A stretch of 64,000 bases of DNA, taken from assembly GCF_035084215.1 (NCBI RefSeq), contig NC_090359.1, forward strand, positions 13,826,001 through 13,890,000. The letters run 5' to 3'. Made by a program: the position numbers and the translations under genes. A model generated the notes under the pieces. The model saw only the letters and a list, made by a program, of their open reading frames with translations. It had not been told where the DNA came from and did not search any database. Shown here one piece after another: positions 28,169 to 35,410 of the stretch; the first letter of the stretch is position 1, and each line of letters begins with the position of its first letter. Source of the DNA: Heptranchias perlo. Its lineage: Eukaryota.

Positions 28169-28380
28169 CTGTATTGCAAAGCTCTGATTGGCTCTGGATA
28201 TCAATCTCTCCCCCAGAGCCCTGTCCTTTGTTAATTGGTGCCTGGATTCATGGAAGATTCCTGATTGGCTATCAGGGATTGTCAATCATCATTGGTGCTG
28301 TCCATTCCTGGTTTCAATGCAGGCTGTCCCAGTCGTAGAAATACAAGAGCTTGGATCAGAAGAAAATAGTTCCAGAACTT
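28169..28380 (+). promoter_or_regulatory. Orphan duplicate of the ferritin proximal promoter, between Tx1 copies 1 and 2
   Basis: 212 bp matching 35158-35369 (I see 2 mismatches) and homologous to the element-free promoter at about 61866-62045. Confidence 0.9.
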
Positions 28381-28501
28381 TTTTTTTTTTTTTTTTTTTC
28401 CTTTTTTTTTGTTTTTTTGTGTATTAGGCCCCCCTTTTATAAGAAGGGGGGGTGTGGGGTGTGCTTAAATACTAAAAACCAAATAAACCAAAACCAAGTG
28501 T

Positions 28502-31500
28502 TCAAATTAAAATTTTATTATCCACGTCCAGGATGCACTCCAGCCCCTGCGGTGCCCACCGGTCGCGGAAAGCCTCGAGCGTACCGGCAGACACCGCGTG
28601 CTCCATCTCCAGGGCCACCCGGGCGCGGAGCATTCCGCGGAAGAGAGGCAGACAGGCCGAGCAACGGCCCCCACGGACCACGATCATCCTAGACCTGTGG
28701 ATGGCCACCTTGGACAGGCCCAGGAGCAGGCCCACGAGAACGTCCACCGACCTGCCCGCCCCCCTCCTCACCGGGCGGCCAAAGATCAGGAGCGTGGGAC
28801 TGAAATGCAGCCAGAACTTGAGGAGCAGCCCCTTCAAATAATGGAACAGGGGCTGCAGTCTCGCACACCCAGTGTACAGATGGAACACGGACTCCTCCAG
28901 GCCGCAGAAATCACAAGCGGCCTGGGTGTCCGTGAAATGGCGTAACCGCCGGTTGCACGCGACTGCTCCGTGCGCCACCCTCCACCCCAGATCCCCAAAG
29001 TAACACGGGAGGACCCCTGTATAGAGAGCCTCCCAATGGGGACCCCCGTCTCCGCCGGACGGCAGGATGGTACGCCAGGGCGTGTCCGGCCGAGAGACGA
29101 GGGCGAGGAAGTGGATGGTGTGCAGGAGCAGCCCGTACAGGAAATCCCTCCGCGCGGTGTGAAACGGCACGGAGGGAATTTCCGAGAGACGACTCAAGTT
29201 GTGAGGCGCGGCCCCCCGAGGGAGGTTCCGGGGTTTGGCGCCGAGGAGGAACTCCGTCCGAACGGGGGTCAGGTCGGACGGGATGGCTCCGCACGCCTGA
29301 GCCGCCTCCACATCCCGAGTGGAGTCAGGGCCGAGCGCCGATTTCAACGCCCGGATGGCGATGGCCGCGTCCCCGGCACGCCACGAGGACATCCGTGCGG
29401 CGAGCGCCCACGGCTCCAACCAACCCGACCCACCGCCATCCAGGACGTCCCTGACTCTGGTCACCCGACCGGCCACGGCCCTCCGCACCGACAGCCGCGA
29501 GCGGCCGAAGCCGATATCGCGGAGGAACGGATTCCCGAGCAGCGGCTCCTGCAGGACGGCCGCTACCCCTGACGGGCGAGAGCTCCGACCGGAGGCGACC
29601 GTGTTCCAGACCCTGAGCAGATCCTGGTAAAAGACAGGCAGCTCCTGCAAAGACATGCGGCCGCCCACCAGCGAGATGAACAGGAGCTGCGTGTCGTAGT
29701 TCAGGCCGTGCAGCTGGCGGAAAAAATACGTCGCCAGCGCACGCCATCTAAGAGGACGCTCAACGTACAGGTATCGCCGCAGCGTCCGAAGGCGGAAAGT
29801 TGCCACCTGGGTGCGGACGCACACCAGCCCCTGACCGCCCTCCCTAAGCGGGAGACTCAGGACCGCGGCAGCGACCCAGTGTATCCCTCTGGCCCAGAAG
29901 AAGTCGACAAACTTCTTCTGAATCTTGGCGACAAACTCAGGGGGGGGGGTCAAAGTGACCAACCGGTACCACAACATGGCGGCCACCAGCTGGTTTATGA
30001 CCAGCACACGACCCCTGTAGGATAACACTCGGAGCAGTCCTGTCCAGCGCGCCAGGCGAGCGGCGACCTTGGCCTCCAGCTCTTCCCAGTTCGCCGGCCA
30101 GGCTTCCTCGGCAGGGCCGAGGTAGACTCCCAGGTACCGGAGGTGCGTGGTACTCCAGGCGAAAGGCCTGAGCTCCTCCGGCAGGGAGTCCACCCGCCAC
30201 TGACCCACCAGGAGTCCGGAACATTTCTCCCAGTTGATCCTTGCGGAAGACGCCGCAGAGTAGACCTCTTGGCACTCGCGCATCCTCCGCAAGTCAAGGG
30301 GATCCGTGACCACGAGGAGCACGTCGTCGGCGTAAGCCGAAAGGACGACCTCCACGTCCGGCTCGCGCAGAGCCAGTCCCGACAACCTCTTGCGCAAGAG
30401 GCGCAGGAAAGGCTCCACGCAGACGGCGTATAATTGGCCGGACATGGGGCACCCCTGACGCACTCCTCTCCCGAAGCGAAGGGGCGCCGTCAAGGATCCG
30501 TTAACCTTAATCAGACACTCCGCGGCGGCGTACAGAAGTCGGATCCGGGCGACGAAATGCGACCCGAACCCGAAAGCGCGCAGAGTCCCGAATAGATACT
30601 CGTGATCCACCCTGTCGAACGCCTTCTCCTGATCTAAGGAAAGGAAGGCGACCGACAGACCAGCCCTCTGGGAATGGTGGATCAGGTCCCGGACCAGATG
30701 GATGTTATCGTGGATCTTCCGGCCCGGGACCGTGTAGGACTGGTCGGGGTGGATCATGTGGGCCAGCACGGTGCCCAGGCGAGCAGACATCGCCTTGGCA
30801 AAGACCTTATAATCCGTGCTGAGGAGGGAGACCGGGCGCCAGTTTTTAAGGTTGCGGAGATCCCCCTTCTTAGGCAGCAGGACCACGACCGCCCTGCGCC
30901 ACGAAAGGGGCATCTCCCCGGTCGCCAGACATTCCCCCAGGACCCGCGCGTAGTCGCCCCCCAGGACGTCCCAGAAGGCCCTGAGGAACTCCACGGTCAG
31001 CCCGTCCAGCCCCGGGGACTTGCCCCTGGAGAGCTGGTGGAGGGCGCCGGTCAGCTCCGCCAAACTGAGCGGAGCGTCCAGACGCTCGGCGTCCTCCGGG
31101 CCGACCTTCGGCAAGTCCTCCCACAAAACTCTGCGCGCCTCCTCGCTGGACGGATCCGGAGAGAACAGAGCCTCGTAGAAAGATCGAGCCCGGGCCCTGA
31201 CTCCCTCCGGGTCCGAGACGAGGGACCCGTCGTCGGCCAGCAGCGTAAGGAGCTGCTTACGAGCCCCCCGCCGCTTTTCCAGCGAGTAGAAGAAGGGAGA
31301 GCCGCGGTCCAGGTCCCGCAGGAGCTGGAGCCGCGACCTCACGTACGCTCCTCGGGACCCGACCAGTTGCAGGTCCCTCAGAGCGTCCTTCTTCTCTAAT
31401 TACACCTGCCGCAGGGCCGGATCCTCGGCGGCCTGACCGAGACGGGACTCCAGGCCAAGCACCTCCTGCTCCAACCGCCTGACCTCGGACTCCCGCCTCT

Positions 31501-34479: not shown

Positions 34480-35157
34480 GACCTAAAGAGCCACACCCAC
34501 CCCAAGTCTCGGGCCTACTGATGAATTTAGGCCTTTTTTTTTAAAAGAAGCCCTGAGGAAACCTCTCTCCCCGAATCCCAGAGCTTGGTTGGGAGAGGGG
34601 CCCCTTTGCTGGTTTTATTTCCCCCAGAATATCCGGGAGAGCAAGAGAAGGTGGGAGGGATTAATGGTGGAATGGGAAGGAGGGAGTCTGCAGGGGTAGG
34701 CTGCTGCAGAAGTGGGTGGAAGAGGGGCGGGGTTGCACCTTAAAAGGTGGATCTTATTCTGCCTGTCTTCCAGTGGGCAGGGGGAGGAGATGTCTTCCCC
34801 GAGACAGCTGGAGCTGCCTCGGCTCAGTCCTCCAAAGATTTGAAAAGGAAAGTAACTTCAACCAGGCAGCTCCAGCTGTCCTGGGCCAGACACTTGGGGG
34901 GGACCCCTGTCCTCTGAAGTCCTCTTCCTCCCCCTACCTTCAGCCGACACACCTCACTGCACCGACCACCTCTTCCTCCCACTGGTTGGTGCTCTTTTTC
35001 TCCTTCTCCCTCCCTCCTTGTTGATGGTGGTTTCTCCTTCTTTCTCCTTCTCCTTCTCCCCAAGGGACCCAGGCAAGGGCCTGCTCTCTCTGCTCTCTCT
35101 GCTCTCCACTCCACTCAGTGGCAGTCCAGCCACAAACACCTCCAAGGCCTTGCTGGT

Positions 35158-35410
35158 CTGTATTGCAAAGCTCTGATTGGCTCTGGATATCAATCTCTCC
35201 CCCAGAGCCCTGTCCTTTGTTAATTGGTGCCTGGATTCATGGAAGATTCCTGATTGGCTATCAGGGATTGTCAATCATCATTGGTGCTGTCCATTCCTGG
35301 TTTCAATGCAGGCTGTCCCAGTAGTAGAAATACAAGAGCTTGTATCAGAAGAAAATAGTTCCAGAACTTTCTAGGCAATAGAAATTAGTCCCAATATATA
35401 AATAGTGAAG
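35158..35410 (+). promoter_or_regulatory. Proximal promoter/5'UTR of ferritin copy A (TATA box altered)
   Basis: Four ATTGG (inverted CCAAT) motifs. TAGAAATA at 35325-35332 sits where the other copies have TATAAATA. Confidence 0.75.

Follow-up and report, generated by a model that had tools for sequence, protein, structure and literature searches.

Tx1-clade retrotransposons at ferritin-like gene promoters of Heptranchias perlo: duplicated promoter intervals probably left by recombination between neighbouring insertions

A 64,000-nucleotide stretch of the Heptranchias perlo genome (assembly GCF_035084215.1, contig NC_090359.1, positions 13,826,001 to 13,890,000 of the forward strand; hereafter the window, numbered from its first nucleotide) carries on its plus strand three tandem ferritin-like genes, F1 (ATG at 35411), F2 (57166) and F3 (62115), together with four full-length retrotransposons of 6.7–6.8 kb (copies 1 to 4), all on the minus strand and all head-to-head with these genes. 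Copies 1 and 2 (pair 1) precede F1, copies 3 and 4 (pair 2) precede F2, and a segment of ferritin promoter (P; P1 in pair 1, P2 in pair 2) stands on both sides of copy 2 and again of copy 4. How does a host promoter come to be repeated between retrotransposons? The first-pass annotation offered two models: (a) an antisense activity of the ferritin promoter, carried along by each new element, and (b) recombination of elements that had entered the promoter at different positions. We favour the second, in the form of independent insertions followed by homologous recombination, and think it, with considerable reserve, the probable origin of the duplicated promoters.

The elements are assigned to the Tx1 clade of retrotransposons lacking long terminal repeats (non-LTR retrotransposons) by the domains of their second open reading frame (ORF2) and its closest identity to Tx1. 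ORF2 of copy 4 is 50% identical to the Xenopus Tx1 149-kDa protein over 100% of the query and possesses the Pfam motifs Exo_endo_phos (1.4e-8) and RVT_1 (9.6e-39); among the best 120 of 302 hits the highest partial identities were to sequences of stingray (71%) and horn shark (67%). ORF1, of 680 residues, lies upstream of ORF2 and has no Pfam match. Both frames are open in copy 4 only (ORF1 54029–56071; ORF2 50094–53999, with endonuclease, reverse transcriptase and a weak zf-RVT motif), and copy 3 has a 1-bp frameshift in ORF2. Element-to-element identity is 95–97%, and a BLAST search of the window with copy 4 returned the four copies and no further fragment. Poly(A) tails are present in all four, and a target site duplication (TSD) in one of the three copies with a visible 3' junction. 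Since the starts of all four copies lie no more than 18 bases from one element position, the family has a defined 5' end, which adjoins whichever promoter base it met; in each of the four that neighbour is promoter DNA.

In pair 1, 28169–28380 matches 35158–35369 at 210 of 212 positions, and in pair 2, 49655–49854 matches 56840–57039 at 200 of 200, so that the ~212-bp and at least 200-bp duplications first noticed around copies 2 and 4 are both borne out. The order [Tx1][P][Tx1][P]–ferritin, described at first as occurring twice, is whole in pair 1, which is gap-free with its P-to-poly(T) junction assembled; pair 2 is interrupted by 141 N at 49855–49995. The duplicated interval has as its exact limits the 5' junction of one element and the 3' junction of the next. 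The 5' junction of pair 1 lies at -253 from the F1 ATG (-243 in F2 coordinates) and that of pair 2 at -326 from the F2 ATG, 83 bp apart, and each is reproduced base for base within its pair, including 18 extra 5' bases in copy 3 (49637–49654). The 20-bp TSD reported for copy 3 was found again (42814–42833 = 49655–49674). Identity between P1 and P2 is 84.6% over 123 bp, each agreeing with its local gene, as against 95–97% between the elements. We take P to be the interval between two insertion sites and neither a TSD nor cargo; it is not a heritable part of the family. With paralog-specific segments and differing junctions, the proposal that each element carries its own copy of the promoter is not supported.

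The elements themselves are mosaic. Over the 5' 2 kb the difference is 0.66% between copies 1 and 2 (13 substitutions in 1976 positions), 0.50% between copies 3 and 4 (10 in 2017) and ~3% across pairs; to these are added microsatellite indels, one of them 39 columns from the 5' end of copy 3. In the 3' 4.7 kb the partners differ by 2.9% (pair 1) and 3.8% (pair 2), and non-partners by 1.8–3.6%. This drop in divergence within pairs (Fisher p=6e-10 and 2e-17) is placed by a single change point near alignment column 4710, counted from the element's 3' end, in both pairs (33132 and 54724; likelihood ratio 45 and 80); in cross-pair controls the change points fall at 6330–6420, where the two 5' untranslated region (UTR) types part. 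The closest relative thus switches along the element. The 3' body of copy 2 is closest to copy 3 (1.8% different over 4.7 kb), while its 5' 2 kb are closest to copy 1 and the last 337 bp of the element identical to it; the 3' 450 bp of copy 4 are 5.1–5.6% different from the other three. In the C-terminal 1.35 kb of ORF2 (columns 450–1800) copies 1 and 4, which have a type in common, differ by 1.0% and copies 2 and 3 by 1.3%, as against 4.4–4.5% within pairs. Of 120 informative sites 64 group 1+2/3+4 and 56 group 1+4/2+3, the 8 sites of the third pattern being excluded, and they form 15 runs where 10,000 shuffles gave a mean of 60.7 and a minimum of 41.

Because near-identity is confined to the 5' 2 kb, while part of the 3' region groups 1+4/2+3, copies 2 and 4 appear to be chimeras of a separately inserted body with the neighbour's 5' end and P. 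Their 5' junction and flank are those of the neighbour, as in chimeric long interspersed elements (LINEs). The divergence of P (2 of 212 and 0 of 200) fits the age of the 5' tract, from which 1.4 and 1.0 differences would be expected. The private ORF2 changes of copy 4 (31 synonymous to 21 non-synonymous), unlike those of copies 1 (8:16) and 3 (9:16), suggest that its body belongs to a separate active lineage. The switch from ~3–4% to ~0.5–0.7% and the junction-to-junction extent of P are what model (b) predicted. Promoter capture would have left progeny that match their mother over the whole length, but 10 of 22 windows of 300 columns in pair 1 and 15 of 22 in pair 2 have diverged more than the age of the 5' tract would allow (p<0.01 each), and with no such mother match and with P1, P2 and their junctions all different, the copies do not resemble a promoter-capturing subfamily.

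We would picture the events as follows. One recently active Tx1-clade family presumably inserted repeatedly and independently in ~290 bp around the ferritin promoters, the first insertions (copies 1 and 3) landing upstream of the CCAAT/TATA core and the second (the 3' bodies of copies 2 and 4) within or below it, always antisense to the gene; the second sites would be -41, which is seen, and one at or below -127, as judged from the position of the gap. Homologous exchange with the copy already resident upstream would then have supplied the second element with its 5' 2 kb, either through unequal crossover after insertion or through invasion of the neighbour by the new complementary DNA (cDNA) during target-primed reverse transcription, that is, synthesis-dependent strand annealing. 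The two routes would give the same sequence product and are indistinguishable here. If copying continued past the 5' end of the neighbour and across the promoter interval, the product would be [element][P][hybrid element][P]–gene. Left unrepaired, an insertion at -41 would part promoter from gene; the hybrid would restore an intact promoter in front of an intact gene and may therefore survive selection, which we offer as the reason for its two occurrences. That the pieces are joined in the animal as they are in the assembly is presumed.

Several observations weigh against this reconstruction. Copies 1 and 2 also share a 482-bp identical internal tract with a nonsense lesion in ORF2 (three bases, 24428–24430 and 31398–31400, far from the shared 5' ends; permutation p=0.008) as well as a similar tail; the tract and tail either require extra conversion between neighbours or point to duplication of the whole unit. 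In pair 1, 12 of the 22 windows are compatible with a common origin. Columns 4750–6400, where all 14 informative sites are pair-specific, are more conserved in every comparison (1.2–1.6% across pairs), which inflates the change-point signal. It is odd that the switch occurs at nearly the same position in both pairs, ~2.1 kb from the 5' end and inside ORF1; this could reflect a recombination hot spot, chance or a length scale of the assembly. The gap covers the junction of P with copy 4, and the length of the second duplication is accordingly unobserved. The only differences in P1, at 28334 and 28354, both lie within 47 bp of the tail of copy 2, the preceding 502 bp being identical (Fisher p=0.048). 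No intermediate or reciprocal allele was seen within the one 64-kb window.

The strongest rival to recombination is an error of assembly, in which the insertions, real in themselves, belong to different haplotypes, or there is only one P, and the second body was mis-joined to the first 5' end with P traversed twice. A difference of 0.5–0.7% is within the range of allelic variation. The shared 5' tract is ~2.1 kb in both pairs, and the crowding of both P1 differences into the last 47 bp at the junction is what a haplotype switch or homopolymer-adjacent errors would give. In pair 2 the gap follows directly upon the perfectly repeated 200 bp, and false duplications with associated gaps are a known class of error (PMC9668749). 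Two separate mis-joins would be required, and pair 1 runs without a gap through its P-to-poly(T) junction. Furthermore, the shared tracts are not identical, P has diverged in keeping with them, and the few 1-bp indels in 27 kb of repeat suggest an accurate consensus. The warning of an artefact given with the first-pass annotation stands particularly for pair 2, for which we consider such an error distinctly possible; for the locus as a whole it seems doubtful, and for pair 1 unlikely. The cluster of insertions survives even if the assembly is at fault.

Rather less probable is a tandem duplication of a whole unit of element and P at the DNA level, through T microhomology between UTR and poly(T) tail, with extensive gene conversion afterwards; only two insertions would then be needed. 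The T microhomology is present at the junction, the array shows conversion, and the tail pattern, internal nonsense tract and 5' end shared within pair 1 are all as such an event would leave them. The price is that ~45% of windows in pair 1 and 68% in pair 2 must have been overwritten, including the 3' end of copy 4, and the poly(T) run at the junction is longer in copy 2 than the inner tail of copy 1, as after fresh retrotransposition. We regard this course of events as quite unlikely.

Promoter capture in its own right, in which the ferritin promoter fires antisense and a transcript headed by P is reverse transcribed and reinserted locally, its 5' end joined by homology as in target co-transcribed R2, we find improbable; in a weaker form the reverse transcriptase would jump from the RNA of another copy to the P-initiated transcript of the neighbour. 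The head-to-head geometry of all four copies speaks for it, as does the cluster of ATTGG motifs (four in the 212 bp of P, against 70 in 32,812 bp outside the elements; p=0.0012, Poisson). These motifs had been described as lying just upstream of the element's 5' end; their presence in P is confirmed, the spacing varying from 18 bp in pair 1 to 101 bp in pair 2. CCAAT boxes function in either orientation, and their reading on the element strand is therefore uninformative about the direction of transcription. On its antisense strand P lacks a TATAA and carries four to five upstream ATGs, the four starts within 18 bases are as expected of the element's own start site, and the putative mother, copy 1, shares its ORF2 stop with copy 2; the partners, again, are not whole-length copies of each other, nor are P and the junction the same in the two pairs. 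The precedents are a SVA subfamily driven by the MAST2 promoter, the 5' extensions of SINEU-2 and the co-transcription of R2 (PMC4494074), alike in having host DNA directly upstream of the element's 5' end. In those systems progeny inherit the host piece; here the piece is local and paralog-specific, with a different start in each pair.

Sequential full-length insertions with TSDs of more than 200 bp are very improbable: P does formally flank copy 2 in the manner of a TSD, and tandem SINEU-3 copies sandwiching one have been described (PMC4494074), but the one clean TSD of the family is 20 bp, the second nick would have had to match the neighbour's 5' junction exactly, twice, in two unrelated contexts, and each new copy would also have needed the neighbour's 5' haplotype.

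The clustering of the insertions is a matter apart from the duplication of P. At least three insertion junctions of this one family lie within ~290 bp of ferritin promoters, and the rest of the window has none. Three can be seen to fall in promoter or UTR sequence, namely the 5' junction of pair 1, the 3' junction of copy 2 and the site of copy 3; a fourth promoter junction is probable. Were three hits distributed uniformly over the 36.3 kb of non-element DNA, the chance that all would fall in three 330-bp promoters is 2e-5 (7e-4 for two), a figure which ignores the ascertainment of the window and selection and is a lead, not a test. We consider such crowding unusual. The three visible 3' junctions (at -326..-307, at -41 and in non-ferritin DNA) are in different sequences which by eye have little in common but the TT that precedes the break; a common nick motif was dropped as a candidate, the comparison being by eye and of three junctions only. 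A transposon-like target hidden in the promoter was looked for, and no clear terminal inverted repeats were found. Unlike a fixed-site family of the Tx1L or Keno type, these elements have no single target position. The hairpin loop of the Tx1L endonuclease has 11 residues with an RDGH tip (PMC1950540); in the alignment the loop here is three residues shorter and has no RDGH. From the absence of a fixed position and the shorter loop, open promoter chromatin or tethering would seem likelier than strict sequence recognition.

With Xenopus Tx1L and the target-preferring Tx1 families (Keno, Kibi/Koshi, Tx1-Mar and Tx1-9_AMi) the elements share two ORFs, an ORF2 with endonuclease and reverse transcriptase, a poly(A) tail, a 20-bp TSD and repeated insertion into a multicopy sequence. 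Known targets of the clade include DNA transposons, LTR elements, small nuclear RNA and 5S genes, satellites and microsatellites, and a family is counted as target-preferring, after Kojima, when more than 20% of its genome-wide copies are flanked by one sequence type (PMC4494074). In the one window, four of four copies adjoin ferritin promoters. The sites here differ from those of known Tx1 families: they are scattered across ~290 bp of promoter and 5'UTR in an array of protein-coding genes.

Chimeric L1s which duplicate <250 bp of nearby DNA, an outcome put down to strand annealing (bioRxiv 10.1101/2024.08.27.596794, citing Gilbert et al. 2005), resemble the present case, as does non-allelic recombination between LINEs, in the hybrid element and in the homology-driven copying of a neighbouring segment of less than ~250 bp. 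Those L1s come from human tumours and cultured cells, with non-L1 templates <=15 bp from the site (bioRxiv 10.1101/2024.08.27.596794), whereas in our case 2 kb of the adjacent full-length element belongs to the copied tract, the setting is a genome assembly, and one array shows the structure twice. Drosophila offers promoter hot spots for P elements (heat-shock promoters; PMC1592238) and for roo solo-LTRs (CG18446; PMC4982627), where a single family has independently entered a short proximal promoter many times; these are DNA transposons or solo LTRs found across strains, and the present case concerns full-length LINEs stacked in cis with promoter duplication. The non-LTR element TRE5 of Dictyostelium inserts ~50 bp upstream of tRNA genes via RNA polymerase III (Pol III) factors (PMC5006619), and so resembles our elements in being placed upstream of a multicopy gene by position and not by sequence. 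Its window is narrow; here the gene is transcribed by RNA polymerase II (Pol II), the spread is ~290 bp and a tether is only conjectural.

As a speculation, which on balance we doubt, a Tx1 lineage might have exchanged fixed repeat targets for Pol II promoters in a multicopy array of protein-coding genes, guided by position (for example by tethering to CCAAT- or TATA-bound factors, as TRE5 is to Pol III factors). With the 5' end of each newcomer completed on its resident neighbour, insertion into a promoter would become harmless, and the promoter and a fresh target would be regenerated at each round, giving stacks of [element–promoter]n and possibly allowing the elements to borrow promoter activity.

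The features discussed are collected in the following table.

Features of the window around the Tx1-clade elements and ferritin-like genes
Feature	Position	Strand	Remarks
Second poly(A)-like tail and 32-bp spacer past copy 1's own tail	21368..21427	-	no TSD
Copy 1, full length	21428..28168	-	ORF1 frameshifted, ORF2 stop at codon 333, 5' type A
Left (orphan) P1	28169..28381	+	F1 promoter interval, -253 to -41 from F1 ATG
Copy 2, putative chimera	28382..35157	-	3' body nearest copy 3, 5' 2 kb nearest copy 1
Right P1	35158..35410	+	continuous with F1 5'UTR; four ATTGG boxes; TATA-like TAGAAATA at -86
F1, ferritin-like gene	35411..40947	+	four coding exons: 35411-35512, 37156-37302, 40300-40425, 40801-40947
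Left TSD of copy 3	42814..42833	+	20 bp
Copy 3, ordinary insertion	42834..49654	-	20-bp TSD at -326..-307 of F2; 5' type B
Left P2	49655..49854	+	F2 promoter interval; begins with the TSD, cut at -127 by the gap
Assembly gap	49855..49995	.	141 N over copy 4's 3' junction
Copy 4, putative chimera	49996..56839	-	independent 3' body; 5' 2 kb as copy 3, including 18 extra bases
Right P2	56840..57165	+	continuous with F2 5'UTR; TATAAATA at -83
F2, ferritin-like gene	57166..59897	+	four coding exons, open 173-aa frame
F3, ferritin-like gene	61780..64000	+	ATG 62115; promoter without element (empty-site control); truncated after exon 3 by window end

Some details of the elements deserve mention. No TSD was found for copy 1, the longest word common to both flanks being 6 bp, and homology of its left flank to ferritin upstream DNA was not detected (p=0.46, with no BLAST hit near the junction; in an anchored test p=0.08 and 0.13, the positive control giving p<0.001). 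This copy may be a deletion-type hybrid or the carrier of a 3' transduction; the additional sequence at 21368–21427 is possibly such a transduction or an older tail. Interrupted double tails with a short spacer are seen in copies 1 (21368–21427) and 3 (42834–42865) and are suggestive of 3' transduction. The 32-bp spacer past the tail of copy 1 was tried as an inverted ferritin UTR and rejected: its score of 28.2 was equalled or exceeded by 5 of 98 background windows, with shuffle p of 0.016 on F2, 0.12 on F3 and 0.20 on F1. For the 18 additional bases at the 5' end of copies 3 and 4 the window offers no convincing match. An inverted repeat of 28–32 bp in the element 5'UTR (27802–27903 and 56380–56476) is kept in both 5' types, and a search of the element's 5' end for a ribozyme or other known RNA gave no Rfam match, only hairpin-driven microRNA matches far below the gathering score.

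The genes we take to be ferritins from their spliced 173-residue frames and four-exon layout, and the family assignment is putative. Splicing of F1 and F2 at GT-AG introns gives open frames, and a TATA-like box lies at -83 to -89 in the promoters of F1, F2 and F3. No iron-responsive element (IRE) was found by Rfam at the gathering score in the whole window, the scan which also covers the F1 UTR, nor was one among the 15 and 4 weak matches (E<=5) in the F2 and F3 5'UTRs. The 5'UTR stretches scanned were 57095–57165, 62045–62114 and 35340–35405; by eye the F3 5'UTR retains a CAGTG-like remnant, and the F1 UTR is unlike the other two. Paralogous exons differ by 1–8 bases each and six of seven compared intron pairs are unalignable, from which the array would appear prone to conversion. 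A block of 2 kb downstream or upstream of the genes is 91% identical between 40789–42833 and 59739–61747, and this, with the near-identical exons (35411–63758) and mostly unalignable introns, is taken as a sign of concerted evolution.

The F3 promoter has ~55 bp absent from F2, bounded by an 8-bp direct repeat (61752–61824). This piece falls between the two Tx1 5' junction positions and is 82–84% similar to the reverse strand of F1 intron 2 (40089–40157 and 39025–39086); a profile built from it recovered the three sequences of which it was made and the copies of the F2 promoter, and nothing else. Intron 2 of F1 contains a local duplication (39021–39275 and 40087–40345) holding a partial, internally deleted copy of exon 3 with a splice acceptor. 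Elsewhere in the window are a CpG-rich region with promoter-like motifs by eye (15600–16050, ~5.4 kb left of copy 1), a tandem repeat with a unit of ~66 bp (8196–8721), and older LINE-like reading-frame fragments unrelated to the Tx1 copies (1–1655 and 6086–7820).

The separate parts of this picture are known: target-preferring Tx1 families, promoter hot spots and chimeric LINEs that duplicate adjacent DNA. Among the matches listed no report of Tx1 at ferritin promoters was found, in a literature which omits most subscription papers and Repbase entries, and nothing on Tx1 in shark, ferritin arrays in cartilaginous fish or insertions into ferritin promoters; nor did the literature searched contain the combination, that is, full-length vertebrate LINEs which stand head-to-head with the genes of a protein-coding array, stacked in their promoters, and a promoter that is restored on each occasion. 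The reading we favour is that the locus behaves as a chimeric-LINE interval duplication at a promoter hot spot. Should the family prove scattered and the stacks mis-joined, the locus would be an ordinary hot spot. If real, it would be a naturally occurring example of an outcome of LINE repair that is otherwise known mainly from tumours and cell culture, and would illustrate a route by which a gene may survive an insertion between its promoter and start codon. Enrichment of the family genome-wide at ferritin or other CCAAT-box promoters would make these a new class of Tx1 target, an idea which copy 4, with both its ORFs open, makes directly testable.

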